A stretch of 64,000 nucleotides of DNA, from NCBI GenBank assembly GCA_035633215.1, contig DASQFI010000045.1, positions 76,316 through 140,315 on the forward strand. Reading direction: 5' to 3'. The notes beneath the pieces were generated by a model. That model was not told the origin of the DNA. It saw nothing but the letters and a program-made list of their open reading frames with translations, and searched no databases. This DNA is from Vicinamibacterales bacterium (GTDB lineage: Bacteria; Acidobacteriota; Vicinamibacteria; Vicinamibacterales; SCN-69-37). Shown here piece by piece: positions 1-60,423 of the stretch. Made by a program: the position numbers and the translations under genes. Numbering within the stretch: the first letter of the stretch is position 1; each line of letters opens with the position of its first letter.

Positions 1-4357
<4,357 letters not shown>

Positions 4358-4390: not shown

Positions 4391-4842
4391 CACAGCGGGC
4401 CAGACGATCGCCGCGCCGGAACGCCGCAAGGCGCGAAGGCGGGGAGGAAAGTCCGAACTCCGCAGGGCAGTGCGCCGGGTAACACCCGGTCGGGGCAACC
4501 CGAAGGACAGTGGCACAGAAAACATACCGCTCACCGTAGCCCGAAGCCCGCAAGGGCGGAGGGCGAAGGTGAGTAAGGGTGAAAAGGTGCGGTAAGAGCG
4601 CACCGCATCTGTCGTGAGGCAGATGGCACGCAAAACCCCGCACGGAGCAAGGCCAAATAGGGAGGCGCCCCGCGCCGGCGTGCAAACGCTGCGCGCGACG
4701 GGAAAGCGGATGGTCCCGTCCGAAGCCTCCGGGTAGGCTGCTCGAGCCCGTCAGCAATGCCGGGCCTAGAGGAATGATCGTTACGCCGGCTCGGCCGCAA
4801 GGTCGCGACGGCGGACAGAATTCGGCTTACGGCCTCGCTGTG
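4391..4842 (+). ncRNA. rnpB: RNase P RNA, bacterial type A
   Basis: Universal motifs GGAGGAAAGTCCG (from ~4443), GGTAAGAGCGCACC (~4590) and ACAGAAttCGGCTTA near the 3' end. P1 pairing between cacagcgggcc (4391-4401) and ggcctcgctgtg (4831-4842). Confidence 0.93.
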
Positions 4843-4857
4843 GCGGAACCTCTTTTA

Positions 4858-4945
4858 GCCGGGGAGCTTCGCTTCCCGGACCCCTCTACTCGCTCGCTCG
4901 CGGGGGCCCCGATGCCCCGCTCCGCTCGCGAGGCGCGCGCCGTCG
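4858..4945 (+). repeat. GC-rich ~85-nt intergenic repeat, copy A of 3
   Basis: By-eye alignment (~80% identity) to 17891-17975 (same orientation) and to the reverse complement of 32805-32889. Shared core GGGGxGCTTCGC...GGACCCC...CTCGCGGGGCCCC...GCCCCGCTCCG. Confidence 0.6.
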
Positions 4946-5009: not shown

Positions 5010-6269
5010 ATGCGGAGCAGACTTGTTCAGGCCGGTGTGATCGCGACTGTCGCCGCGGTCGGCGCCGCCATGCTCGTTGCGCAACAGCAGCAGCAGGGCG
5101 GACAGACCACAGGCGGCCAGCAGCAGACCGGCGGCCGCGGCGGTCGAGGCGGCGGCACGCAGGTCCAGCCCGGCCAGGAATGTCCGCCGGGCATGACGAT
5201 GGTACGGCCGGGGAATTGCCAGGCGCCGCAGTTTCCGCCGCCGAGCATCGTCGACTATCGCCCGCGCAACACGCTGGTGACCGCCGCGCACCCGACGCCG
5301 AAAGCCAAGTTTCCCGCCATCGACTACCACGGCCACGCGGGCGGCCGACTCAACACGCCCGAAGGCCTGAACGGGCTCATGGCGGCGCTCGACCAGCTGA
5401 ATGTGAAGCTCTTCGTGGCGGCCGATGGCATCTCCGGCGCCAATCTCGACCGCGTGATGAAGACGCTCGCTGCGTCGCCGCACAAGGACCGTGTCCGGCC
5501 GATGACGACGATCAACTTCAGCAACGTCGGACCGGGGTGGGCCGAGAAGGCCATCGCGCAACTCGAAGCGGACGTCAAAGCCGGCGCGGTCGGCGTGGGC
5601 GAGATCAGCAAGGGTTTCGGTCTGCGCACGCGCAAGCCGGACGGCTCGCTGCTCAAGATCGACGATCCCGAGCTCGATCCCGTGTGGGAGGCGTGCGCCC
5701 GGCTGAACATCCCGGTGTTCATTCACACCGCCGAGCCCCAGGAATTCTTCGAGCCAATCGATTTCAAGAACGAGCGCTGGCTCGAGCTGGCGCTGTTCAG
5801 CGACCGGCGCTATCCGCCCGATCAGTTTCCGCGCTTCGAAGAGCTGATGGCGCAGCGCGATCGGATGTTCAAGAAGCACCCGAAGACCCGGTTCGTCGCG
5901 GCGCACTTCGGCTGGCACGCCAACGACCTGGGGCGGCTCGGGAAGATGCTCGACGCGATGCCCAACGTCTACACCGAAATGGGCGCCGTGCTCTACGACA
6001 TCGGCCGCCAGCCGCGCGGCGCGCACGATTTTCTGGTCAAGTATCAAGACCGCGTGCTGTTCGGCAAGGACGCGTTCGAGCCGAGTGAGTACCCCACGTA
6101 CTGGCGCGTCCTCGAGACGAGGGACGAGTACTTCGACTACTACCGCGACTACCACGCCTTCTGGAAAATGTACGGCGTCGATCTCCCCGACGTCGTCTTG
6201 AAAAAGATCTACTACCAGAACGCGCTGCGGATCACGCCCGGCCTGCCGCAGACCGGCTGGCCGCGCTAG
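5010..6269 (+). CDS. Secreted amidohydrolase-family (TIM-barrel metal hydrolase) protein with Gln/Gly-rich linker
   Basis: Signal-like N-terminus. Low-complexity QQQQQGGQTTGGQQQTGGRGGRGGG. AIDYHGHAGG metal-binding start and HTAEP/AAHFGW motifs typical of amidohydrolase_2. Confidence 0.8.
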   Translation: MRSRLVQAGVIATVAAVGAAMLVAQQQQQGGQTTGGQQQTGGRGGRGGGTQVQPGQECPPGMTMVRPGNCQAPQFPPPSIVDYRPRNTLVTAAHPTPKAKFPAIDYHGHAGGRLNTPEGLNGLMAALDQLNVKLFVAADGISGANLDRVMKTLAASPHKDRVRPMTTINFSNVGPGWAEKAIAQLEADVKAGAVGVGEISKGFGLRTRKPDGSLLKIDDPELDPVWEACARLNIPVFIHTAEPQEFFEPIDFKNERWLELALFSDRRYPPDQFPRFEELMAQRDRMFKKHPKTRFVAAHFGWHANDLGRLGKMLDAMPNVYTEMGAVLYDIGRQPRGAHDFLVKYQDRVLFGKDAFEPSEYPTYWRVLETRDEYFDYYRDYHAFWKMYGVDLPDVVLKKIYYQNALRITPGLPQTGWPR

Positions 6270-6368
6270 AGCCGTTCTCACTTCCCGTAGAGAGCAAAAC
6301 CGACATGGGTCGCGAGACTTTCGGTCGAATCTACCAACTGGCTCGCTACAGGAGAGTGAGAACGGCTC
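6269..6368. repeat. MITE-like 100-nt palindromic element, copy 1 of 4
   Basis: Terminal inverted repeats GAGCCGTTCTCACTTCC / GGAGAGTGAGAACGGCTC, flanked by TA (6267-6268, part of the TAG stop of the upstream gene) and TA (6369-6370). Homologous along its length to 24783-24882 and 29428-29526. Confidence 0.75.
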
Positions 6369-6397
6369 TAATGGCCGGGACCTGTCCACGCCACTAG

Positions 6398-7351
6398 ATG
6401 CCGACGTATCTCGTCACCGGCGGCGCCGGGTTCATCGGATCGCACCTCGTCGCGGAGCTCTTGCGCCGCGGCCAGTCGGTGCGGATTGCCGACAACTTCT
6501 CGACCGGTCTCCGTGTGAACCTGCCCGCGGGCTCGGCCGTCGATCTGGTCGAAGGGGACCTGGCCGACGCGGACGTCGCCCGCCGGGCCGTCGACGGCTG
6601 CACCTACGTCATTCATCAGGCGGCGATCCCCTCCGTGCCGCGCTCCGTGAAAGATCCTGTCGGCTCCAATCGCGCGAACGTCGACGCCACGGTGCAGGTG
6701 CTCGCGGCCGCGCGTGAGGCCGGCGCCAAACGCCTCGTCTTTGCGGGCTCATCGTCGGTGTACGGCAACGCCGCGGTGCTGCCAAAACGCGAAGACATGC
6801 GTCCCGCGCCGCTCTCGCCCTACGCGCTCCAGAAGCTCGTCGCCGAGCAGTATTGCCAGATGTTCACGAAGCTCTACGGCTTCGAGACGGTGACGACGCG
6901 GTATTTCAATGTGTTCGGGCCGCGCCAGCAGCCCGGATCGCCGTACTCGGGCGTCATTTCGCTTTTCATCGAGGCGCTTTCGGAAGGGAAGGCGCCCACC
7001 ATCCACGGCGACGGCAAACAGACCCGCGACTTCACGTACGTCTCAGACGTCGTGGACGGGGTCCTGCGGGCCTGTGAAGCGCCCACTGCGGCTGGGGAAG
7101 TGATCAACGTCGCCGGCGGTGGACGCATCTCGCTCCTCGAAGTGCTGCGCACGCTCCAGACCATCCTTCGCAAGCAGGTCGACGCGACGTTTGGTCCACC
7201 GCGCGAAGGGGACGTGCGCGACTCACAGGCCGACATCCACAAGGCGCGGCAGATGCTCGGCTACGAGCCGCGCACGCCGCTCGAGGACGGGCTGCGGCGT
7301 ACGGTGGAGTGGTACCTGTCGACTGCAGCGCCCACACGGGCCGGTTCGTAG
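6398..7351 (+). CDS. NAD-dependent nucleotide-sugar epimerase/dehydratase (extended SDR)
   Basis: Rossmann motif VTGGAGFIGSH, catalytic YxxxK (SPYALQKLV), length 317 aa. Confidence 0.9.
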   Translation: MPTYLVTGGAGFIGSHLVAELLRRGQSVRIADNFSTGLRVNLPAGSAVDLVEGDLADADVARRAVDGCTYVIHQAAIPSVPRSVKDPVGSNRANVDATVQVLAAAREAGAKRLVFAGSSSVYGNAAVLPKREDMRPAPLSPYALQKLVAEQYCQMFTKLYGFETVTTRYFNVFGPRQQPGSPYSGVISLFIEALSEGKAPTIHGDGKQTRDFTYVSDVVDGVLRACEAPTAAGEVINVAGGGRISLLEVLRTLQTILRKQVDATFGPPREGDVRDSQADIHKARQMLGYEPRTPLEDGLRRTVEWYLSTAAPTRAGS

Positions 7352-7352
7352 C
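7269..7352 (+). repeat. 84-bp direct repeat, left copy (functional 3' end of epimerase gene)
   Basis: Aligns to 8426-8509 at constant offset 1157 with 4 mismatches in 84 (counted by eye). Confidence 0.9.
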
Positions 7353-7541
7353 GAAAGAAATCAACCGCCAGTTGGGCGCCCTCGTGATAATCCCACGGCA
7401 AATCGCGTGGGACTCGGTTGCTAATCTCGCCAAACAGCTGTCTACTCTTGAGGTGGTCGGCTTCGCAGGTCGCGTCGCGTTGTCTAGTGGACCGTACTCG
7501 CTGAAGTACTACCAATGCTTCGGGCGAGTGGGGTGTAGGGT

Positions 7542-8327
7542 TTAGCGAGGCGCGAGCGGCGTAAACCAGAGGTTGATCTGGTCGAGTCGGAGGTACTTGC
7601 CGACAATCGTGTACCCGCGCGCCGCGAAATAATCCAAGATGTGCTGCCGTGTCTGGGGATGTGCTTCGATGCAGACAAGCCGAGGCATGAAGCGCCGCAG
7701 GTCGAAGCCAGCCAACGCCTGCGGCTCTGACAGTTCAATGTCCATCGAAATGAAGTCAATGTTCGTGATTGCCGCAGGTGCCAGTAGGTCGTTCAGGGTA
7801 ATTGTCGGCACCTGTTTTGCGACGAGTGCGTCAGGAGTGTGCTGAGAGGTAAAATCCCGAGTCGCCGACGAGTACTGCTCATACCGCTTGGACACGAACA
7901 TCGTCGCGGTGTCCTCGGAGCGATCGCTGACAAATAAGGCGAAGAACTTCGTATTGGGCCGCGACTTCTGGTAACTGGGCGCGTACGTATCTAGTGCGTC
8001 GATAGCAATGCCAGACTAGCCGAGTTGATCCTCGAGAAAATACGTGTTGCTGCCGACGCGGGCATCCGCAGAGCCGACGTCAAGGAATGTGCCGCCCCTC
8101 CTGTCTTGGAAGAAGTCGCGAATGATCCATTCTTCTGCGTTCTCAGACCATTTCTGCGACCCGTACTTGTCCCGAAGCCACTGGAGATCTCGCGGTGACA
8201 CGAACGACTCGTGGTAATTGAGGACGAAATGGCGGCCGACACCGAAGCCAAGCACGAGCAGGAGGCCGCCAATGCAGGCGACTTCAATGAGGTCAAGGCC
8301 TCGCGATCGGGTCACTTTTTGCCGCAC
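7542..8327 (-). pseudogene. FkbM-family SAM-dependent methyltransferase interrupted by an in-frame TAG (8016-8018)
   Basis: Two track ORFs (8016..8576 and 7542..7901) are in the same frame. Joined reading is ...FLDVGSADARVGSNTYFLEDQLG*SGIAIDALDTYAP...FISMDIELSEPQALAGF...CIEAH. The stop sits where FkbM proteins usually have Trp (TGG>TAG). Likely start is GTG 8327, preceded by AGGAG. Confidence 0.75.
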
Positions 8328-8425
8328 GTTCGCTCCTGCACGCCAGTTTCCGGACCAAGGGCCCACAGGGCGCGCTTTTGTGTTTCGGCCGATTGAGGTA
8401 ACCACTGCAGGCGACGACCGGCGAG

Positions 8426-8509
8426 CGCGCACGCCGCTCGAGGACGGGCTGCGACGTACGGTGGAGTGGTACCAGTCGACTGCGGCGCCCACACAGGCCG
8501 GTTCGTAGC
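8426..8509 (+). repeat. 84-bp direct repeat, right copy (orphan remnant of epimerase 3' end)
   Basis: Encodes ...RTPLEDGLRRTVEWYQSTAAPTQAGS*, versus ...RTPLEDGLRRTVEWYLSTAAPTRAGS* at the end of the intact gene. Confidence 0.9.
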
Positions 8510-8680
8510 CAGCGCCGTCACCTCGGGTTGCCCCACAGCCCGGCTCATCAGTCATTCCGGAAACCACCGGCGTCATTTCCAGCGGCTCGCTCTGAGGGCG
8601 CAGCGGTCATCCGCTCGTCGCGGGTTCGCAAGTCTCCATTCAGCCATCACTTACGCGAGCGATCGACCTGCGCGACCGGT

Positions 8681-8696
8681 TGGCCGCGGCTTTGCC
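8681..8696 (+). promoter_or_regulatory. Candidate sigma-54 (-24/-12) promoter upstream of comEA
   Basis: TGGCcgcggctTTGCc: the GG and GC elements have the canonical spacing of TGGCACG-N4-TTGC. Lies ~170 nt upstream of comEA. Single site, no experimental support. Confidence 0.25.
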
Positions 8697-8865
8697 AGAG
8701 AGTCCTGTGGGATCAGGCCGGCCGAGCGGTAACAGTGCCGACTTCACCACTGCCAACGCGATCGATCCGGTCCTGCTCCCGCTGACTGAGGCGCGGCAGC
8801 GCGTCTATCCCTGATTTCACGCAAGACCGAGGCAGGCGGAGCCCTGCCGGAACGTGGAGAGCATC

Positions 8866-9201
8866 ATGCGCAGGCTGTGTGTGACGGGTGCGATCGCACT
8901 CGTGCTTCTGTTATCCGGACCGTCCCGCGAGTCGCAGGCCCAAACCGCTTCCCAGTCGTCGCCCTCGGCCCAGCCGGCCGCGGCGGCCCTGGTGAACCTG
9001 AACACCGCGACCGTCGCCGACCTGGCCAAGCTGCCGGGCATTGGACCGGCCGTGGCGGCGCGCATCGTCGAGTACCGACAGAAGAACGGCGGCTTCAAGA
9101 AGGCGGAAGAGCTGATGAACGTCAAGGGCATCGGCGAAAAGACCTTCCTCAAACTGAAGCCGCTCGTGACCATCGCGCCGCCGAAGACCACCGAGCGATG
9201 A
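8866..9201 (+). CDS. comEA: ComEA-family helix-hairpin-helix DNA-binding (competence) protein
   Basis: Signal peptide, then LNTATVADLAKLPGIGPAVAARIVEYRQKNGGFKKAEELMNVKGIGEKTFLKLKP. ATG 8866 follows GGAGAG. The track start 8854 is a GTG alternative. Confidence 0.85.
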   Translation: MRRLCVTGAIALVLLLSGPSRESQAQTASQSSPSAQPAAAALVNLNTATVADLAKLPGIGPAVAARIVEYRQKNGGFKKAEELMNVKGIGEKTFLKLKPLVTIAPPKTTER

Positions 9202-9881
9202 CGCTCCGGCGGCGCCACGGAACGCCACTTGACTTGACGTGGTATTCGGCGGCTCTTCAGGAGCGTCGGCGCAGCCGACCACGTCGAGTCAAGTGGGTTC
9301 CGGGATCAAAAAGCGAAGGTTATTCGCTGGTCGAACTCCTGCTTGTGCTGGTCGCGGCGACGACCTTCGTGTCAGTCGCGCTGCCGCTGACGAAGACCAG
9401 CACCGACGCAGGCCGGGCACGACACGCCGGCAGCTTCGTCGCCGCGCGGTTCCGGCTGGCGCGGCAGCAGGCGGTGGCACGGACGGCAACGGTCGGGTTG
9501 GTGTTCGACCTGGTGAACGGCCGATGGCAGGTGCGGGTTTGCGCGGACGGAAACGCGAACGGCTTGCGGCGCGCGGAGATCGCGGCCGGCGTGGATCGAT
9601 GCTTCGAAGGCCCGCACGATCTGGAATCGCTGTTCCCAGGTATCCGTGTCGCGGTGGACAACACGCTCCGAGGCCCAGGCGGCGAACCTCCGTCACCGGA
9701 TCCCGTGCGATTCGGCGCCTCAAACATCGCCAGCTTCTCCGCGTCTGGAAGTTGCACTGCCGGGTCGCTGTTCCTCAGATCTTCGCAGAACTTGCAGTAC
9801 GCCGTGAGAATCGCGGGGGTGACCGGGCGGACCCGGATCCTCAGATACAACTCGGCGACCGGAACCTGGGACGAGATATAG
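9198..9881 (+). CDS. GspH/FimT-family minor (pseudo)pilin with prepilin-type N-terminus
   Basis: Prepilin motif G|YSLVELLLVLV. GspH-like body. C-terminal GRTR (GRxR). ATG 9198 overlaps the comEA stop (ATGA). Alternative TTG start at 9234. The track ORF 8877..9881 upstream of 9198 is out-of-frame read-through of comEA. Confidence 0.75.
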   Translation: MTLRRRHGTPLDLTWYSAALQERRRSRPRRVKWVPGSKSEGYSLVELLLVLVAATTFVSVALPLTKTSTDAGRARHAGSFVAARFRLARQQAVARTATVGLVFDLVNGRWQVRVCADGNANGLRRAEIAAGVDRCFEGPHDLESLFPGIRVAVDNTLRGPGGEPPSPDPVRFGASNIASFSASGSCTAGSLFLRSSQNLQYAVRIAGVTGRTRILRYNSATGTWDEI

Positions 9882-9910
9882 CAGGTTGCTGAAAAAGCCA
9901 GCAACCTGCT
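9880..9910 (+). terminator. 12-bp GC-rich hairpin starting inside the TAG stop codon
   Basis: agcaggttgctg-aaaaagc-cagcaacctgct. No downstream T-tract. The same stem sequence recurs at 26006-26030. Confidence 0.45.
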
Positions 9911-9978
9911 AGGCCGGGTAGCGATGGGCCGACGAATCGCCGGACGGGCGAGCAGGGGAATGCGCTACCCGCGCCCGG

Positions 9979-11058
9979 TTGGAATGGAATGCCGTCGTCG
10001 GGACCGGCAGCGGATTGACGGTTGGCATCACAGTTGAAGCGCTGTTCGCGCTTGGGGGCAGGGCGATGCTCGTGGGTCAGAGTTTGCTGATGAAGGAGCT
10101 GCGCGCGCGACTGGCGCGCATCGCGGACACGAACTTCACGGTGCTCGTGGAGGGAGAGAGCGGCGCCGGAAAGGAGCTCGTTGCGCGCGAGATTCACAAC
10201 GGCAGCCATCGCCATCGAGGGCCATTCGTGGCAGTCAATTGCGCGGCCCTGGTCGAAACGCTTCTCGAAGCCGAATTGTTCGGCATCGAGGATCGGACGG
10301 CAACGGGCGTCAAAGGCCGGCGCGGCAAATTCGAGCTGGCGCACAAGGGCACGCTGTTTCTCGACGAGGTCGGCGATCTCTCGCCAACCGCCCAGGCGAA
10401 GCTGCTTCGCGTGCTCCAGGACTGGTCGATCGAGCGCGTGGGTGGGCAGGCTCCGCATCACGTGGATGTGCGCGTCATCGCCGCCACGAATCGCAGCCTG
10501 AGGACCCTGGTGGACAGCGGACGGTTCCGCGCGGACCTCTACTACCGGCTCGCGGGTGTCGAAGTCTACGTGCCGCCGCTCCGCGCGCGGCGCGACGACA
10601 TTCCTCTGCTCGTCAGCCACTTTGCCGCGGGATATCGGCGGACCCGGTCACTCTCGCTGACCGCTCCCGCGCTCGAGGCGCTCATGGCCTACGACTGGCC
10701 CGGCAATGTTCGGCAGCTTGCACGGGCGCTCGAACGAGCCGTGGCGCTTGCGCCGGGGCCGGCCGTCACGGTGACCGATCTGCCGGGCGAGATCTCGAGC
10801 GACTACCAGGACCTGCTCCGCGAGGTTCCGGCCCGCGACGACTCGCTTCGGGCCTGGAGCAGTCGATACGTGCGGCTCGTCCTCGAGCGGTGTGAGGGCA
10901 ACAAGCGGCGCGCCTGCCAGATTCTGGACATCACGTACCACACACTGCAGTCGCACCTCGACTATGGGTCGCCGCTCGCGAGCGTCAAGCCGAAGGCGGA
11001 TCTGCCATTGCGCGAGCCGACGGCTGAGATGACGCAGCCGTGCGAGCGAACGTTGTAG
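9979..11058 (+). CDS. Receiver-less sigma-54 activator-like AAA+ protein (PspF/HrpS-like architecture) with degenerate GAFTGA
   Basis: Walker A GESGAGKE, Walker B TLFLDEV, R-finger region, C-terminal HTH (CEGNKRRACQILDITYHTLQSHL). GAFTGA position reads RTATGV (nt 10294-10311). Probable start is ATG 10066 (MLVGQSLLMKELR...). Confidence 0.85.
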   Translation: MEWNAVVGTGSGLTVGITVEALFALGGRAMLVGQSLLMKELRARLARIADTNFTVLVEGESGAGKELVAREIHNGSHRHRGPFVAVNCAALVETLLEAELFGIEDRTATGVKGRRGKFELAHKGTLFLDEVGDLSPTAQAKLLRVLQDWSIERVGGQAPHHVDVRVIAATNRSLRTLVDSGRFRADLYYRLAGVEVYVPPLRARRDDIPLLVSHFAAGYRRTRSLSLTAPALEALMAYDWPGNVRQLARALERAVALAPGPAVTVTDLPGEISSDYQDLLREVPARDDSLRAWSSRYVRLVLERCEGNKRRACQILDITYHTLQSHLDYGSPLASVKPKADLPLREPTAEMTQPCERTL

Positions 11059-11213
11059 TGCGCCCGCGTCGCTAAGGGTGGAGGCGGGTACCCCGTGAAG
11101 TCGCCGACGGCCGGATAGCCGGACGCCAGAGTTTCTGGCAGTTCAGACGGATCAGGTTCCGGGACAAGGCCGGGCCGCGATCCGCTTGGTCCGGGTGTCC
11201 CGGACCGGGAGAA

Positions 11214-11978
11214 ATGCTCATGAAAGAGAAAGTGCACGTGATCGCCGCCGCGGCTCTGGTCGCCGCCGCGGTGGTGTCGATCGTTCCCGCGGCCGGTGCC
11301 CAGCAGGTGCCGCTGCAACGGCAAGTCGATGCGCTCACCGGCGCGGAAGTTCGCCTGTATCACGGCGAGCGGCCGGGCAAGGAAGTACGGGTCGAGATTC
11401 AGGATCCCTCCGTCCTGATCCGCAAGGAGATCGTGAACGGCACGTCCGTGACCACGATCGCGTCCGGCACCGAGCGAATCTCACTGGCGCTGAGCCGCCA
11501 CGGGTTCGTGGTCACGAGTGGGGACCAGCGCGTTGACGCGGATCGTGAGCATCCCGATCGCGTCGAGGCCGCGCGCCAGATCGTTGCGCGTTCGAACGCG
11601 GTGAAGCGGGCGACGACGCTGCTTGGCAAACTGGCGGCTGGACCGGTATCGGCGCTCCGTCACACCGCCAGAATCACGCGCGCGACGCTGCTTTCGGCCG
11701 CCGGAGATTCGACCGGCAAGCGTGAGCTGTCGACCTGGGCGCGCGCCGCCCGCGACGAGATCAAAGTGAAGCCGGTCTCGGACGAACAGGGGGGCCCGGG
11801 TCAATGCTGGTACCTCTATGCGCTCGAGGCCATTGCGGCCTACATCGAATACGAGGACTGCATGAACCAGCTCTACTGGTACGAAATCCTCGACATGATC
11901 GGCTGCGCCCTCATCTACGACCTGCGCGCGATTGGCGCGTTCTCGTGGTGGATCACCTGCGTCGGATTCCGCGCCTAG
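11214..11978 (+). CDS. Hypothetical secreted protein with aromatic/Cys-rich C-terminal region
   Basis: Signal peptide (AAAALVAAAVVSIVPAAGAQQ). No motif recognised. C-terminal CWYLYALEAIAAYIEYEDCMNQLYWYEILDMIGCALIYDLRAIGAFSWWITCVGFRA. Confidence 0.6.
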   Translation: MLMKEKVHVIAAAALVAAAVVSIVPAAGAQQVPLQRQVDALTGAEVRLYHGERPGKEVRVEIQDPSVLIRKEIVNGTSVTTIASGTERISLALSRHGFVVTSGDQRVDADREHPDRVEAARQIVARSNAVKRATTLLGKLAAGPVSALRHTARITRATLLSAAGDSTGKRELSTWARAARDEIKVKPVSDEQGGPGQCWYLYALEAIAAYIEYEDCMNQLYWYEILDMIGCALIYDLRAIGAFSWWITCVGFRA

Positions 11979-12038
11979 CTTCGTGACGCGACTCGGGCCG
12001 TCTCCGCAACTCTTCATCGTTTCTTCGGGAGGTCTGTG

Positions 12039-12230
12039 ATGTCCGTGTGGAGAATCGTCCTGATCGTCCTGATCACGTTCCTGGTCACGGCGACGATGAT
12101 GCCGATGGTGCTCGTCGGCGTGCCGGCCGCGCGCGACGAGACGGTCGGAGTGTCGATCATGGGCGGGATCATGATCGTGGTGTTCGCGGGGATCTGGTTC
12201 GTCTGGGCGAAATTCGGCGCGCGGAGGTAG
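12039..12230 (+). CDS. Small hypothetical membrane protein (two predicted TM helices)
   Basis: GGGAGG 6 nt upstream of ATG 12039. Two hydrophobic helices. Followed directly by a strong hairpin. Confidence 0.5.
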   Translation: MSVWRIVLIVLITFLVTATMMPMVLVGVPAARDETVGVSIMGGIMIVVFAGIWFVWAKFGARR

Positions 12231-12232
12231 GC

Positions 12233-12263
12233 CCCGGCTGGCGGCGCGAAGCCGCCAGCCGGG
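12233..12263 (+). terminator. 13-bp GC hairpin immediately after TAG stop
   Basis: cccggctggcggc-gcgaa-gccgccagccggg. No T-tract. Confidence 0.5.
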
Positions 12264-12398
12264 CGCGGCGGTCGGGACCTCGGCCGCCATCCTCGGCCGA
12301 CATCCTCGGCCGCCATCCTTGACCCTCCGCCGAACGCGATAGTACGTTGTACGGCCCTGCCGCGCTGGCGACGTCGCCACGCGGTCAGCCTTTCGCCC

Positions 12399-13529
12399 AT
12401 GTCGTCCAGCCCGGCCGCGCTGAAGAAAACCCCGCTGAATAACCGCCACCGCGCCAGTGGCGGCCGAATGGTCGAGTTTGCCGGCTGGGAGATGCCGGTC
12501 GAGTACACGGGCATCTCCGATGAGCACCTGGCGGTCCGCACCCGAGCCGGGCTGTTCGACGTGAGCCACATGGGCGAGATCGAGATCGCCGGAACCGACG
12601 CGCTCTCGCTCGTCCAGGTCCTGACGAGCAACGACGCCTCACGGCTCTCCGTGGGGCAGGCGCAGTACTCCGCGCTCATGACGCCCACCGGGACGTTCGT
12701 AGACGATGTGCTGGTATATCGGTTGGCGGACGACCACTACATGCTGGTCGTCAACGCCGGCAACATCGTGAAGGACTACGACTGGATCGCCGCCGAGGGC
12801 CGCAAACGCGGCGGTGATACCGCGGTCGTGAACGCCAGCTCCCGGTACGCGCTGATCGCGCTGCAGGGACCGGAAGCCCAATCCGTCTTGCAGAGTCTGA
12901 CCGCCATCGACCTCTCGGCGATCAAATACTACTGGTTCAGCCACGGGGAAGTCGCCGGAGTTCGCGTCACGGTCTCGCGGACGGGGTACACCGGCGAGGA
13001 TGGGTTCGAAATCTTCGTCCCTCCCGCGCTCGCCGAACGCGTCTGGGCCGCGCTGCTCGATGCCGGCCGCACGGTGGACCTGCGGGCCTGCGGCCTGGGC
13101 GCGCGCGACACTCTGCGGCTCGAAGCCGCGATGCGCCTCTACGGCAACGACATGGACGACCAGACGACCGTCCTCGAGGCGGGGCTCGGGTGGATTGTCG
13201 GCTGGCAAAAGAGCGATTTCCTGGGCGCCGAACGGCTGCGCGAGCAGAAGGCGAACGGGCTGGAGCGCAAGCTCGTCGCTTTCGAAATGCAGGGGCGCGC
13301 GATCGCGCGGCACGGCTATCCGGTCCTGGACGGCGACACGCCGGTCGGCGTCGTCACCAGCGGCACCCACACGCCGTTTCTCAAGAAAGCGATCGGCTTT
13401 GCGATGGTGCCGGCGACGATGTCGGCCGTGGGCACGCCGCTCGACGTCGAGATTCGCGGCCGGAAAGGGCGCGGCCAGGTCGTGCCCGAGCCGTTCTACA
13501 AGCGGCCGAAGAAACCGGCGGTCAGGTAG
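12399..13529 (+). CDS. gcvT: Glycine cleavage system aminomethyltransferase T
   Basis: KKTPLNNRHRASGGRMVEFAGWEMPVEY...DVSHMGEIEI. Length 376 aa. Followed by gcvH and gcvP. Confidence 0.95.
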   Translation: MSSSPAALKKTPLNNRHRASGGRMVEFAGWEMPVEYTGISDEHLAVRTRAGLFDVSHMGEIEIAGTDALSLVQVLTSNDASRLSVGQAQYSALMTPTGTFVDDVLVYRLADDHYMLVVNAGNIVKDYDWIAAEGRKRGGDTAVVNASSRYALIALQGPEAQSVLQSLTAIDLSAIKYYWFSHGEVAGVRVTVSRTGYTGEDGFEIFVPPALAERVWAALLDAGRTVDLRACGLGARDTLRLEAAMRLYGNDMDDQTTVLEAGLGWIVGWQKSDFLGAERLREQKANGLERKLVAFEMQGRAIARHGYPVLDGDTPVGVVTSGTHTPFLKKAIGFAMVPATMSAVGTPLDVEIRGRKGRGQVVPEPFYKRPKKPAVR

Positions 13530-24637: not shown

Positions 24638-24782
24638 GCGGGCGGCCAGCGACGCGTGTGCCCGACGCGGAGGGCGAAGCGAACCCCTACAGTCGGCTCA
24701 ACAGCGCCGTGGGTAATCCAGCGATTGTATCAAAGACCTCGGGTTTGGTTTTTTCCGTCTTGGCTCGAAAAACGAAACCCGA

Positions 24783-24882
24783 GAGCCGTTCTCACGTCCA
24801 CATCGTGCAGAGCCGGCGAGGATCGCGAGACATTCGGCCGAAATCCGACCAGGTGCCCGCCAGAGGAACGTGAGAACGGCTC
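24783..24882. repeat. MITE-like 100-nt palindromic element, copy 2 of 4
   Basis: GAGCCGTTCTCACGTCC ... GGAACGTGAGAACGGCTC, flanked by GA/GA. Begins 6 nt past the stop of the M23 peptidase gene (minus strand) and sits in the secA 5' region. Confidence 0.75.
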
Positions 24883-24888
24883 GAGGTC

Positions 24889-29315: not shown

Positions 29316-29427
29316 GCGGATCTTTAAGGAAGCGTGCTCATGGGTGCAATTCGAGTGCCGTAGGCTAACACTCGAGGTCGATCGGGTCAATCGACAAATC
29401 GGCGGATTTGTTCGGACACGAGCGCGA

Positions 29428-29526
29428 GAGCCGTTCTCACTTCCATGCAGTGCTAAACCGCTCGAATCGCGGACAGATGGGCCGAATTCTGCCCGGCGGG
29501 CCGCTACAGGAAAGTGAGAACGGCTC
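29428..29526. repeat. MITE-like 99-nt palindromic element, copy 3 of 4
   Basis: GAGCCGTTCTCACTTCC ... GGAAAGTGAGAACGGCTC. The last base overlaps the TAG stop (29526-29528, minus strand) of the aldehyde dehydrogenase gene. Flanks GA/TA. Confidence 0.75.
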
Positions 29527-31247
29527 TAGGCGTGGGGCCACGCCGCGCTCACGAATACCCGATGCGGCTGTGCGAGATCGCGCGCCGATGGAGTGACAAT
29601 CGTGCGCTCCCCGATCACAATCTTGCGCCCGAGCTTGATCGCCTGCTTCACGTCTTCTTCGCACACGAATTCGACGGCCCCGGCCGCATCCGGGTTGGCG
29701 GCCGGCGCCGGTGGCGACGCGCCGCCACCCAGGAGCGCGTCGACCTGCCGTCGCATCGCGGGCGCATCGATCCCGGCCGATGCGGGCGCCGCCGCAATTT
29801 TGGGCAACCAGCTGTCGTCTGCAGTCGCGCGCTTCGGAGGCGCGACCGGCTGACCGTCAACGCGCACCACGGCGGGACGTACCTCGTACGCGAGTCGCTT
29901 GATGTTCAAAAGATGCCGCGGCGAGATGTTGTCCGACGTGATGTTGCCGCCGAACCCGCCGCACCCCAGCGTCATCGCGGGATCGAGTCCCGTCGTGAGT
30001 CCGATCGCTCCGTGCGTCGTGGGTGTGTTGACGACGATGCGGTACGCGGGTTTCTTCAAGCCGAACTCGAGAATCACGTCCTCGTTCCGCGAGTGGATGG
30101 ACATCGTGTGGCCCATCCCGCCGTACCGCAGGATCTGTTTGCAGCGCTCGCAGCCTTCGCGCCAGTCAGCGACGACGTAGTACGAGAGGACCGGGCAGAG
30201 CTTCTCGATCGACAGCGGGAACTCGCGTCCGACACCCTTCAATTCGGCGATCAGCGCGCGCGTCTTGGGCGGAATGCTGAATCCCGCCTGTTGGGCGAGG
30301 AAGGAGGCCGGCTTGCCCACGAGCTTCGGATTCGGAAGACGCTGCGGAGAGACAAGCACAGCCGCGAGCTTGTCGGCTTCTGCCGGCGACATGAAATACG
30401 CGCCCTGGCTCGTAAACTGCCGCTTCACTTCGTCGGCGACAGCGGCATCGACCACGACGGAGTTCGGCGACGAGCAGAGCACGCCGTTGTCGAAGCACTT
30501 GCCGACGAGGATGTCGCTCGCGGCCTTGGCCAGGTCCGCGGACTTCTCGATGTAGCACGGCGCGTTGCCGGGCCCGACGCCGTACGCCGGCTTGCCGGCG
30601 CTGTAGGCGGCGCGCACGAGTCCCATCCCGCCCGTCGCCAGAATCACGGCGACGTCCCGGTGCTTCATCAGCTCCTGCGTGCCTTCGATCGTCACCGTCT
30701 GCATCCAGTTGACGGCCCCCGCGGGCGCGCCGGCGCTCGCGGCCGCTTCGGCCATGACCTCGGCGACGCGGGTGATGCACCGCGCGGCGGACGGATGCGG
30801 GCTGATGACGATCGGGCAACGCGCTTTGAGCGAGATCAGAATCTTGTAGATCGCCGTGGACGTCGGATTGGTCGAGGGAACGATCGCGGCCACGACGCCG
30901 AACGGCTCCGCGATCTCGACGAGTTTGCGCGCCTCGTCGCGGGCAACGACACCCACGGTCTTCATCGGGCGGATGAATCGATACACCTGCTCGGAGGAGA
31001 AAAGGTTCTTCTCGATCTTGTCAGCGACGACGCCGTAGGTCGTCTCCTCGACGGCCAGCCGTGCGAACTCTTCGGCGCGCGAAGTCGCGGCCGCGGCGGC
31101 CGCATCGATGATCTTGTCGATCTGGGCCTGGCTGAACTCGGCGAGAACCGGCGCGGCCTGCTTGGCGCGCTGCGCCAGGCGTCGAGCTTCCTGGATTGAA
31201 GTGAGATCGCGGTCGGTCGGAGCGGCGGTTGTTGCGGTCGCAGCCAT
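29526..31247 (-). CDS. CoA-acylating aldehyde dehydrogenase (EutE/PduP/SucD-like) with ~117-aa C-terminal extension
   Basis: Catalytic context KCFDNGVLCSSPNS (Cys258). Core ends near residue 456. Extension is Pro/Ala-rich linkers plus two ordered-looking segments. 13 nt downstream of a BMC-H gene. Confidence 0.9.
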   Translation of the reverse strand: MAATATTAAPTDRDLTSIQEARRLAQRAKQAAPVLAEFSQAQIDKIIDAAAAAATSRAEEFARLAVEETTYGVVADKIEKNLFSSEQVYRFIRPMKTVGVVARDEARKLVEIAEPFGVVAAIVPSTNPTSTAIYKILISLKARCPIVISPHPSAARCITRVAEVMAEAAASAGAPAGAVNWMQTVTIEGTQELMKHRDVAVILATGGMGLVRAAYSAGKPAYGVGPGNAPCYIEKSADLAKAASDILVGKCFDNGVLCSSPNSVVVDAAVADEVKRQFTSQGAYFMSPAEADKLAAVLVSPQRLPNPKLVGKPASFLAQQAGFSIPPKTRALIAELKGVGREFPLSIEKLCPVLSYYVVADWREGCERCKQILRYGGMGHTMSIHSRNEDVILEFGLKKPAYRIVVNTPTTHGAIGLTTGLDPAMTLGCGGFGGNITSDNISPRHLLNIKRLAYEVRPAVVRVDGQPVAPPKRATADDSWLPKIAAAPASAGIDAPAMRRQVDALLGGGASPPAPAANPDAAGAVEFVCEEDVKQAIKLGRKIVIGERTIVTPSARDLAQPHRVFVSAAWPHA

Positions 31248-59556: not shown

Positions 59557-60315
59557 TTGCGCGCGCTCGGAACGCTGGTCCTGGCGATCCAGGATCAGGG
59601 CATAGCCGCAGGCTCAGCGGAAGCGGCCTCACGCCGGACTGACATCGTCTCCCTGATTCTCAGCGCCGACCCGGTCGTCAAGGCCGTGCTCGCCACGCTG
59701 GTGCTCTTCTCCGTCGTCTCCTGGGGGATCATTCTCTACAAGCAGCGTCAGCTGCGTCGCGCGTCGAAGCAGACGGCGACGTTCCTCGACGTGTTTCGCA
59801 AGAGCAGCCGATTCTCCGAAGTGCAGTCGGTGTGCGCAAGCCTGCCGTCGAGTCCGCTCGTCGGACTGTTTCAGTCCGGCTACGCGGAGCTCAACGCTCA
59901 GCTGCGTTCGGCGGCCGACAAGCCGGGGACGCCGGCGCCACGTCCAACCCTCAGGAGTCTGGAGGCCGTGGACCGCGCCCTGCTGAGAGCGTCGACGACC
60001 GAGGTGGCCAAGCTGGAGCACCGCGTGCCGTTTCTCGCGACGACGGCATCGATCACGCCGTACATCGGCCTGTTCGGCACGGTGTGGGGGATCATGTCGT
60101 CCTTCCAGGAGATTGCCGACAAGGGCTCGACGAGTCTTGGCGTCGTCGCGCCGGGTATCGCCGAGGCGCTGGTCGCCACGGCCGCCGGGTTGTTCGCGGC
60201 GATCCCGGCCGTGTACTTCTACAACGATCTGACGAGCCACGTGAAAGCGTTCTCGAACGAGATGGAGGACTTCTCGATGGAGTTCCTCACGATCGCGGAA
60301 CGGAACTTTACTTAG
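59557..60315 (+). CDS. tolQ: TolQ (MotA/TolQ/ExbB proton-channel family)
   Basis: TTG start 5 nt after GGAGG. Three TMs. PYIGLFGTVWGIM and GIAEALVATAAGL motifs. Heads a tol-pal cluster. Confidence 0.88.
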   Translation: MRALGTLVLAIQDQGIAAGSAEAASRRTDIVSLILSADPVVKAVLATLVLFSVVSWGIILYKQRQLRRASKQTATFLDVFRKSSRFSEVQSVCASLPSSPLVGLFQSGYAELNAQLRSAADKPGTPAPRPTLRSLEAVDRALLRASTTEVAKLEHRVPFLATTASITPYIGLFGTVWGIMSSFQEIADKGSTSLGVVAPGIAEALVATAAGLFAAIPAVYFYNDLTSHVKAFSNEMEDFSMEFLTIAERNFT

Positions 60316-60416
60316 TGCCGTTCCAACTTAATGCACCGATGAACGCGCTCCCTCACTCCAGCCACCCGGGCCACCTCGAGAGCGTTGCCTCTTGGCGGCG
60401 CAAGTTGGAACGGCAC
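60315..60416. repeat. MITE-like 102-nt palindromic element, divergent copy 4 of 4, between tolQ and tolR
   Basis: GTGCCGTTCCAACTT ... AAGTTGGAACGGCAC, flanked by TA (within the tolQ TAG stop) and TA. The TIR is related to GAGCCGTTCTCACTT of copies 1-3; the interior is unrelated. Confidence 0.65.
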
Positions 60417-60423
60417 TAGATCG

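Follow-up and report, generated by a model that had tools for sequence, protein, structure and literature searches.

The 64-kb stretch of the metagenome-assembled genome (MAG) of a soil acidobacterium of the Vicinamibacterales analysed here (the window, or WIN, whose coordinates are used throughout) carries the gene order amidohydrolase, epimerase, variable interval, comEA-like gene, GspH-like gene and sigma-54 activator, which is conserved across Vicinamibacterales. The interval between the epimerase and comEA is referred to as the slot. As shown in Table 1, the slot of the window contains an FkbM-family methyltransferase gene that is interrupted by a stop codon and bracketed by two copies of the epimerase 3' end. 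This arrangement was compared with epimerase loci gathered from close and distant relatives, which amounted to 1.5 Mb of fetched DNA altogether, and the slot itself was surveyed in 59 loci in which the epimerase is followed downstream by the comEA-like gene.

Table 1. Features of the epimerase-comEA interval of the window
Feature	Coordinates	Strand	Remarks
NAD-dependent sugar-nucleotide 4-epimerase, 317 aa	6398..7351	+	PF01370, 219 bits; core gene, left border of the hot spot
Repeat copy 1, functional epimerase 3' end (last 26 codons, stop, +1 nt)	7264..7352	+	
Low-GC spacer between epimerase stop and methyltransferase stop, 189 bp, 57% GC	7353..7541	no strand	
FkbM-family S-adenosylmethionine-dependent methyltransferase pseudogene, 261 codons, N-terminal membrane helix	7542..8327	-	TAG 8016-8018 at Trp104
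Methyltransferase upstream region, inserted DNA, ending at the putative illegitimate junction with copy 2	8328..8421	no strand	
Repeat copy 2 (pseudo-tail), second epimerase 3' end, displaced and without function	8422..8509	+	
Ancestral downstream flank, up to the ComEA start	8510..8865	+	MAFFT alignment of WIN, L002, L003, L005, L010 and L091
comEA-like helix-hairpin-helix competence gene	8866..9201	+	Right border of the hot spot; Pfam HHH_3; TIGR00426

Pairwise alignment of the two direct repeats, at 7269-7352 and 8426-8509, gave identity at 80 of 84 positions, in agreement with the first-pass annotation of this DNA, which had described an insert bracketed by a duplicated epimerase tail. BLAST lengthened the repeat to 7264-7352 against 8422-8509 (89 versus 88 nt, one 1-nt gap, E = 5e-33). 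The repeated segment thus comprises the last 26 codons of the epimerase, its stop codon and one further nucleotide, and not the last 28 codons plus stop as initially described. A duplication running further than this nucleotide, hinted at by a MAFFT alignment in which 7353-7385 resembles the ancestral flank, was rejected after shuffle tests (p = 0.78 and 0.12). The 1,073 bp from 7353 to 8425 have a GC content of 57.8%, the lowest among all segments of this length in the 64 kb (mean 66.5%, sd 2.3), and the GC content at third codon positions is 0.71 in the methyltransferase versus 0.81-0.88 in the neighbouring genes. The insert is therefore indeed less GC-rich than its surroundings, although the flanks have 66-68% GC rather than the 70-75% first estimated. 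An independent Logan assembly of run SRR6683738 (L001), which may share the reads of the MAG, is 100% identical to the window from 6413 to 12578, including the interrupting TAG and both repeat copies. For the spacer at 7353-7541, blastn found no homologue in the 1.5 Mb of related loci and six-frame translation gave no coding signal. No Rfam match was found in 6000-9400 at E values up to 1, and a promoter and terminator scan of 7200-8900 returned nothing beyond the shuffled expectation.

The methyltransferase frame runs on the minus strand from a GTG at 8327 to 7542 and is unbroken save for the TAG at 8016-8018. With Trp substituted at this codon, the product matches PF05050 (Methyltransf_21/FkbM) with 54.4 bits (cut-off 22.7) over profile positions 1-172 of 173, and TIGR01444 with 35.0 bits, slightly under the 37.7-bit cut-off of that model. 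Almost all of its 1,469 homologues are annotated with PF05050, and Trp occupies the TAG column in 16 of 16 aligned homologues, as expected from the earlier description of an FkbM methyltransferase broken at a Trp of the family. The gene is not an intact open reading frame (ORF): the TAG cuts the motif-I region (DVGSADA) off from the rest of the domain, and both fragments are incomplete. All four other members of its 90% cluster (P0001, P0242, P0243 and P0244) are intact orthologues of about 90% identity. The dN/dS ratio of the methyltransferase is 0.14-0.16 between the window and its sister clade (described below) and 0.08-0.10 within that clade, compared with 0.06 for the epimerase. Given these low ratios, the four intact cluster members and the TAG as sole lesion, the comparisons show a gene that was long maintained under purifying selection, for most of its history, and that a recent TGG-to-TAG change inactivated in this genome only.

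It is highly improbable that the TAG is no real lesion, i.e. that the methyltransferase is functional and the TAG results from faulty base calling or assembly, represents a minor strain variant or is read through. Such an artefact could be imagined in a MAG, where a single transition at one codon stands in an otherwise well-conserved gene (omega about 0.15), but the Logan assembly carries the identical TAG, omega is somewhat raised in precisely the comparisons that involve the window, and the NCBI annotation of the Vicinamibacterales MAG covers just a 103-aa N-terminal fragment (HYN08581.1). Moreover, the epimerase and the adjoining amidohydrolase both terminate with TAG, which is therefore a genuine stop codon here; recoding of TAG as a sense codon was rejected on the same grounds, as neighbouring genes end in it.

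Homologues sharing 73-78% identity with the methyltransferase (L171-L176) were found in unrelated genomic surroundings, where no repeats flank them. The gene was accordingly rejected as a self-contained mobile cassette bringing its own repeats. Carriage on known plasmids or phages was also discarded, as these gave distant matches only (at most 33% identity). In L171 (3985-5746) and in L173, a 76%-identical homologue is arranged tail-to-tail with a second FkbM-family gene of 314 aa. The two coding regions are joined there by a 55-nt inverted repeat (75% complementary) that reflects their shared catalytic motif.

The slot is empty in 21 of the 59 surveyed loci. In the empty-site relatives L010 and L091, whose epimerases are 83.7% and 81.7% identical to that of the window at the nucleotide level, the flank cgtcacctcgggttgc..cacagccc stands directly after the epimerase stop, and in the window the same flank follows copy 2. 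Because the epimerase stop of L010 and L091 directly meets the flank found beyond copy 2, the segment 7353-8421 together with one repeat copy is a true insertion. This confirms the insertion relative to an empty site that had been anticipated, with L010, L091 and about 19 other loci empty in the synteny comparison.

Four further loci, L002, L003, L177 and L178 (the sister clade), stem from three different metagenome samples and show about 10% nucleotide divergence. They have the gene order of the window with an orthologous, intact methyltransferase (89.7% nucleotide identity), and homology from the methyltransferase upstream region into copy 2 continues across the 8421/8422 junction (87.5%). 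The 189-bp spacer is missing in all four, the stops of epimerase and methyltransferase being abutted or 1-3 nt apart. Their copy 2 has decayed: it is 71-75% identical to their own copy 1 and carries 3-nt and 10-nt deletions. Since four lineages that have diverged by about 10% possess the same junctions, these alignments show that the insertion is old, not recent, and predates the split between the window and the sister clade. A recent integration, which the footprint first described would imply, with the four mismatches between the repeats measuring the divergence between element and host, is not supported; the shared insertion and junctions, and the 71-75% identity of the sister-clade copies, do not agree with it.

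A different cargo occupies the slot in L004-L009, where a 552-aa GT22/PMT-type glycosyltransferase is encoded on the epimerase strand. In L005, an epimerase-tail remnant of at least 45 nt, with its own stop mutated to TCG, lies right after the GT22 stop and is followed by the conserved flank. This remnant is nearer to copy 2 of L003 (75.6%) than to its own copy 1 (62.5%). In the epimerase tree, the loci are arranged as ((WIN,L002),L005),L010,L091. These relationships are most simply accounted for by a single insertion that created the duplication in the common ancestor of the three occupied lineages, one of which later replaced its cargo.

The high identity of the two window copies contrasts with the divergence between the lineages. 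Coding and non-coding segments of the window and L002 are 87-92% identical (non-coding identity between the window and the sister lineages is about 87%), and their orthologous copy 2 sequences are about 79-82% identical. With a synonymous divergence (dS) of 0.26-0.43 between lineages, a neutral copy 2 could not have kept its 95% identity to copy 1 since before the split. In the sister clade, copy 1 and copy 2 show fixed differences at thirteen alignment columns, of which 11 are scorable in the window. The window copies are identical to each other at all 11, with the copy-1 state at eight and the copy-2 state at three (columns 35, 36 and 65). At column 41, both have a T that is found in no other aligned sequence. 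The L005 remnant has the copy-2-specific CGG of the sister clade, and a CAC in common with L177/L178, where copy 2 of the window has the copy-1 state. Copy 2 of the window is a mosaic, its 5' half being copy-1-like and its 3' half copy-2-like. The 95% identity of the repeats is best explained by gene conversion, which would have operated in both directions within the window lineage. As such conversion homogenises the copies, the four mismatches between them are uninformative on the age of the insertion or on donor-host divergence.

These site patterns also bear on a history in which the methyltransferase and the GT22 gene entered the empty site separately, each with its own duplication, and in which unequal decay, slow in the window and fast in the sister clade, rather than gene conversion shaped the copies. 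Eight of the 11 diagnostic sites are compatible with decay on the sister-clade stem, and the short L005 remnant has just 70-76% identity with the other copy-2 sequences. Nevertheless, separate entries are unlikely: copy 1 of the window has copy-2 states at columns 35, 36 and 65, unlike copy 1 of L002, L003, L177, L178 and L005, the T of column 41 is confined to the two window copies, and at a dS of at least 0.26 well over 5% divergence from copy 1 would be expected of a neutral copy 2. The CGG and CAC of the L005 remnant, and its closer resemblance to copy 2 of L003 than to its own copy 1, also argue for a common origin of the duplication.

The content of the slot was then considered across the 59 loci. 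The slots measure between 238 and 5,787 bp, and clustering of the 72 ORFs from occupied slots gave 52 unrelated clusters. A Pfam scan took in 49 of these ORFs, from about 38 occupied slots. It matched DUF3738, MA-type peptidases with TPR repeats, ABC ATPases, Ser/Thr kinases, phosphoesterases, GDSL lipases, nucleotidyl transferases and MacB/FtsX, as well as HlyD with AcrB, AI-2E transporters, gluconolactonase-like proteins, matrixins, Methyltransf_11, glyoxalases, CHRD domains and ECF sigma factors. None of the 49 scanned ORFs has an integrase, transposase or resolvase domain. The genes flanking the insert in the window encode DNA ligase, HtrA, sigma-54 regulators, the amidohydrolase, ComEA, the GspH-like protein and glycine-cleavage proteins, and the Pfam scan detected no integrase or transposase among them. 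The lack of a recombinase first noticed near the insert thus extends to its housekeeping surroundings and to the scanned slots.

Because its content is unrelated from locus to locus, no recombinase was found among the scanned ORFs, its flanks are housekeeping genes and methyltransferase homologues elsewhere lack repeats, the slot is a generic gene-gain hot spot in Vicinamibacterales, and neither the target of an integrative element nor a dedicated sugar-modification locus. The first-pass annotation had offered, as one of two alternatives, a cassette moved by homologous recombination among sugar-modification loci. Its first half, recombination rather than an integrase, is the better supported one; its second half is not, since the slot holds lipases, kinases, efflux pumps and peptidases across the order. 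Both alternative cargos, the FkbM methyltransferase and the GT22 protein, are glycan-related in the immediate clade only. The epimerase neighbour and the GT22 cargo give only a hint that the predicted substrate of the methyltransferase may be a glycan.

The other alternative was the footprint of a decayed integrative element. According to this explanation, an element with a tyrosine or serine recombinase and an attachment site (attP) mimicking the epimerase 3' end would have lost everything but one cargo gene, and the repeats would be attL and attR. The arrangement of an intact gene with a replacement tail, a cargo and a pseudo-tail is formally identical to icd-e14-icdC (PMC13626634), the insert is low in GC, and sister lineages have two different cargos (methyltransferase and GT22) enclosed by copy 1 and what remains of copy 2. 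Moreover, a second repeat-bracketed insert is present at the 3' region of a member of the epimerase family in L090. Such an islet is nonetheless quite unlikely. In addition to the absence of recombinase domains from the 49 slot ORFs and from the window flanks, no occupied slot among the roughly 38 repeats the epimerase tail except the methyltransferase clade and the L005 remnant, which are probably the same event, and an att-like tail repeat does not recur in the other slots. The methyltransferase homologues outside the slot also lack flanking repeats. The repeat boundaries of the window and of two parallel cases described below, L090 and L141, have no core in common, and neither the new, non-conserved tail of L090 nor the 5'-end duplication of L141 fits an evolved attP.

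These parallel cases came from a self-comparison of all 1.5 Mb for direct-repeat pairs of 45-400 nt, at least 85% identical and 0.3-9 kb apart. It yielded three independent pairs only, in the window clade, in L090 and in L141, and all of them bracket single genes at or in the slot. L090 belongs to a Planctomycetia MAG (JANXSH010000405) and its epimerase is just 52% identical to that of the window. Its 102-nt, 94%-identical repeat of the epimerase 3' region (1350-1451 and 3062-3163) surrounds a 532-aa ORF without Pfam match. Copy 1 stops exactly at ...LAWY and continues into a new tail, KSLEV followed by a stop, while copy 2 has another tail, AESAKK followed by a stop; the tail and stop of the displaced copy are probably the original ones. 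In L141 (Ga0114129_10011964), a single Methyltransf_11 gene in the hot-spot slot lies between two 76-nt direct copies (4783-4858 and 5771-5846, 87% identical) of a 511-aa gene's 5' end; the distal copy, a pseudo-5' end reaching to about 60 codons, is frameshifted. In the window, L090 and L141 alike, the gene next to the insert has remained intact, and conservation among genomes stops at the outer edge of the repeat. Homology-guided capture would fit these three cases, whose boundaries share no core, rather than an evolved attP.

A local origin in two steps could also be considered, in which slippage or template switching first duplicated the epimerase tail in tandem and an unrelated insertion later separated the copies. 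Short local duplications may indeed occur: in L071, a perfect repeat of 28 nt from the epimerase tail lies about 39 nt past the stop, with no cargo between the copies. However, that repeat is far shorter, and such an origin would require two independent events at one point in each of the window, L090 and L141. It would also leave unexplained why the right repeat edge is the end of inter-genome homology (stop+1 in the window, ...LAWY in L090). An origin of this kind therefore appears very unlikely.

Taken together, these features point to a history of integrase-free insertion-duplication at a hot spot, to which as a whole we assign a probability of about 0.6. The comparisons show that a foreign, lower-GC fragment of about 1.1 kb with one FkbM methyltransferase entered the epimerase 89 nt before its stop codon, in an ancestor that the window has in common with the sister clade and probably also with the GT22-bearing L004-L009 lineage. 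The incoming DNA would have carried, or been joined to, a homologous epimerase tail, so that the epimerase stayed intact (copy 1) and the other tail was displaced downstream (copy 2). Two versions of this presumably integrase-independent event can be proposed. In the first, the fragment, circularised and homologous over about 90 nt, would have integrated by a single Campbell-type crossover. In the second (homology-facilitated illegitimate recombination, HFIR), homologous recombination in the epimerase would have anchored a linear fragment, and the 4-nt microhomology GAGC would have served for the illegitimate joining of its other end. In both versions, the right repeat edge would lie where the homology between donor and recipient stops, i.e. 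at the stop codon on the border of the variable slot. Copy 2 then decayed in the sister clade and would have been converted in the window lineage, and the methyltransferase was inactivated late. Recombination between the repeats is predicted to be able to delete the cassette precisely and restore the empty site.

In line with this proposal, the window repeat stops at stop+1, the border of the variable slot, and the L090 repeat at ...LAWY, where the tails of the orthologues diverge. At their left edge, both copies have GAGC/CGAG, in the window as well as in the sister clade; four nucleotides could be there by chance, and conversion may have changed the junction. The presence of a comEA-like gene at the slot border lends plausibility to an uptake of foreign DNA, but is circumstantial. 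Between the two alternatives of the first-pass annotation, recombination is preferable to an integrase, as neither a recombinase nor a reused att core was found in the slots examined.

A number of points weigh against the proposed history or parts of it. The mechanism is deduced from architecture only, and classical HFIR usually gives an insertion coupled with a deletion, not a duplication (PMC3240628). No donor configuration, with the epimerase followed by this methyltransferase and no copy 2, was found, all loci with the methyltransferase beside the epimerase having copy 2. The spacer has no homologue in the 1.5 Mb that would point to the source of the incoming DNA. A single origin of the duplication for the methyltransferase and GT22 lineages is parsimonious, not proven. 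As to gene conversion, its polarity depends on the short outgroup remnant of L005 and a few sites, and quicker decay of copy 2 on the sister-clade stem would account for eight of the 11 sites without conversion. The bootstrap analysis of the repeat copies (85 columns) is ambiguous, with 49% for the window copies as sisters and 50% for a grouping of all copy-2 sequences; this is because the window copies are mosaics, and site patterns were therefore used instead. Finally, the DNA in which the three repeat-bracketed cases were found had been picked for flanking this epimerase, and ascertainment therefore explains part of their concentration at the slot.

The first version of the proposed event resembles a case described in E. 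coli, where single-crossover integration of partly degraded, re-circularised DNA gave flanking duplications of the homologous segment of 109-950 bp (Amarir-Bouhram et al. 2011, PMC3240628). In both situations, foreign DNA lies between direct duplicates of a short homology (89, 102 and 76 nt in the present cases), no site-specific recombinase is needed and the repeat length equals the homology on the incoming molecule. Here, in contrast, the event would be natural and ancient and is read from sequence, and the homology lies at the short end of the experimental range.

The second version has a counterpart in the HFIR proposed for 3'-end displacement arrays in type VI secretion system (T6SS) and rhs loci (Kirchberger et al. 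2017, PMC5361080). Studies of HFIR cited in PMC3240628 and PMC5361080 are de Vries & Wackernagel 2002, Prudhomme et al. 2002 and Meier & Wackernagel 2003. As would be the case here, an upstream conserved gene serves in those arrays as the homologous anchor and the other end is an illegitimate joint with a few nucleotides of microhomology; in both, the old 3' end is pushed downstream as an orphan fragment, and cargos replace each other at one site. Work by Jackson and colleagues in 2009 is reportedly to be named alongside these C-terminal displacement arrays of rhs, contact-dependent inhibition (CDI) and T6SS loci. Classical HFIR differs in being an insertion with deletion, whereas a duplication is found here. 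Moreover, the displaced piece in the window is the 89-nt tail of a housekeeping gene, not a toxin tip with its immunity gene as in rhs, CDI and T6SS arrays, and there is no evident selection for module diversity.

Integrase-mediated insertions at gene ends are well known, among them phage 21 at icd and the integrase-less cis-mobilizable elements (CIMEs) that derive from integrative and conjugative elements at the 3' end of fda. The classic integrase case is icd-e14-icdC, where an intact, chimeric gene is regained when the repeats recombine (PMC13626634). Like e14, phage 21 and the CIMEs, the present locus has an intact gene with a substituted 3' end, a cargo and a displaced pseudo-3' end with scattered mismatches. 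Their repeats, however, are the att sites of a dedicated integrase encoded in the element or in a cognate element, whereas here the related slots scanned contain no integrase, the insert has one gene and the parallel cases share no core.

Chromosomal hot spots of horizontal gene transfer between core genes have reportedly been documented by Touchon et al. in 2009 for E. coli, and later by Oliveira, Touchon and Rocha in multi-species pangenomes. The slot is similar to these in that one interval between syntenic core genes gathers unrelated accessory genes, many of them without mobile-element genes. It differs in belonging to uncultured Vicinamibacterales and in that one event keeps its junction scar, which is rarely resolved in such surveys. 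To our knowledge, most accessory genes at bacterial hot spots are without mobile-element genes, and the events that placed them are rarely visible.

The locus is thus an instance of known processes, namely insertion-duplication at a hot spot, concerted evolution of the resulting scar and recent pseudogenisation. The biological stakes of this gene are small, as it is a single, now-broken methyltransferase. What the locus offers is a surviving scar, the 89-nt duplicated tail, which can be traced through empty, occupied, cargo-swapped and decaying states in uncultured Acidobacteria. It would represent a natural example of integrase-free insertion-duplication followed by gene conversion between short repeats 1.1 kb apart, and it cautions that high identity of flanking repeats does not date an insertion. 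The three insertions with 76-102-nt repeats might even mark a specific, uncharacterised and common integrase-free route of gene gain at hot spots of soil bacteria rather than unrelated accidents, a rather improbable idea. Candidates for such a route may be transformation-driven single-crossover capture of circularised fragments beside comEA, or a trans-acting recombinase targeting gene ends.

With regard to the border genes, orthologues of the epimerase with 74-95% identity are found across Vicinamibacterales in conserved synteny. Its best NCBIfam match is TviC-type, far under the cut-off of that model, and an exact look-up of the window epimerase protein returned no record. The comEA-like gene scores 64.7 bits against NCBIfam TIGR00426 (cut-off 53.1 bits). 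Together with the GspH-like pseudopilin gene (8866-9881 for both), it lies immediately downstream of the hot spot, and the pair suggests a DNA-uptake machinery in these uncultured Vicinamibacterales.

A hairpin element of about 104 nt, similar to a miniature inverted-repeat transposable element or a repetitive extragenic palindrome, occurs in the window at 6267-6370, 24781-24884, 29426-29528 and 60313-60418. It has 16-nt terminal inverted repeats, TAGAGCCGTTCTCACT ... AGTGAGAACGGCTCTA, with eight terminal-repeat matches versus 0.23 expected by chance, a minimum free energy of -54 kcal/mol and no Rfam match. The copy at 6267 sits between the amidohydrolase stop, which forms its first 3 nt, and the epimerase start. 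It is missing from that position in L002, L004, L010 and L091.

Locus L010 derives from a 1.3-Mb contig (ERZ25039555 contig_19426) on which the genes around the epimerase are split into short pieces: the amidohydrolase is in two pieces, the sigma-54 activator is truncated and glycosyltransferases are split. These splits look like indel errors of a long-read assembly rather than biology.

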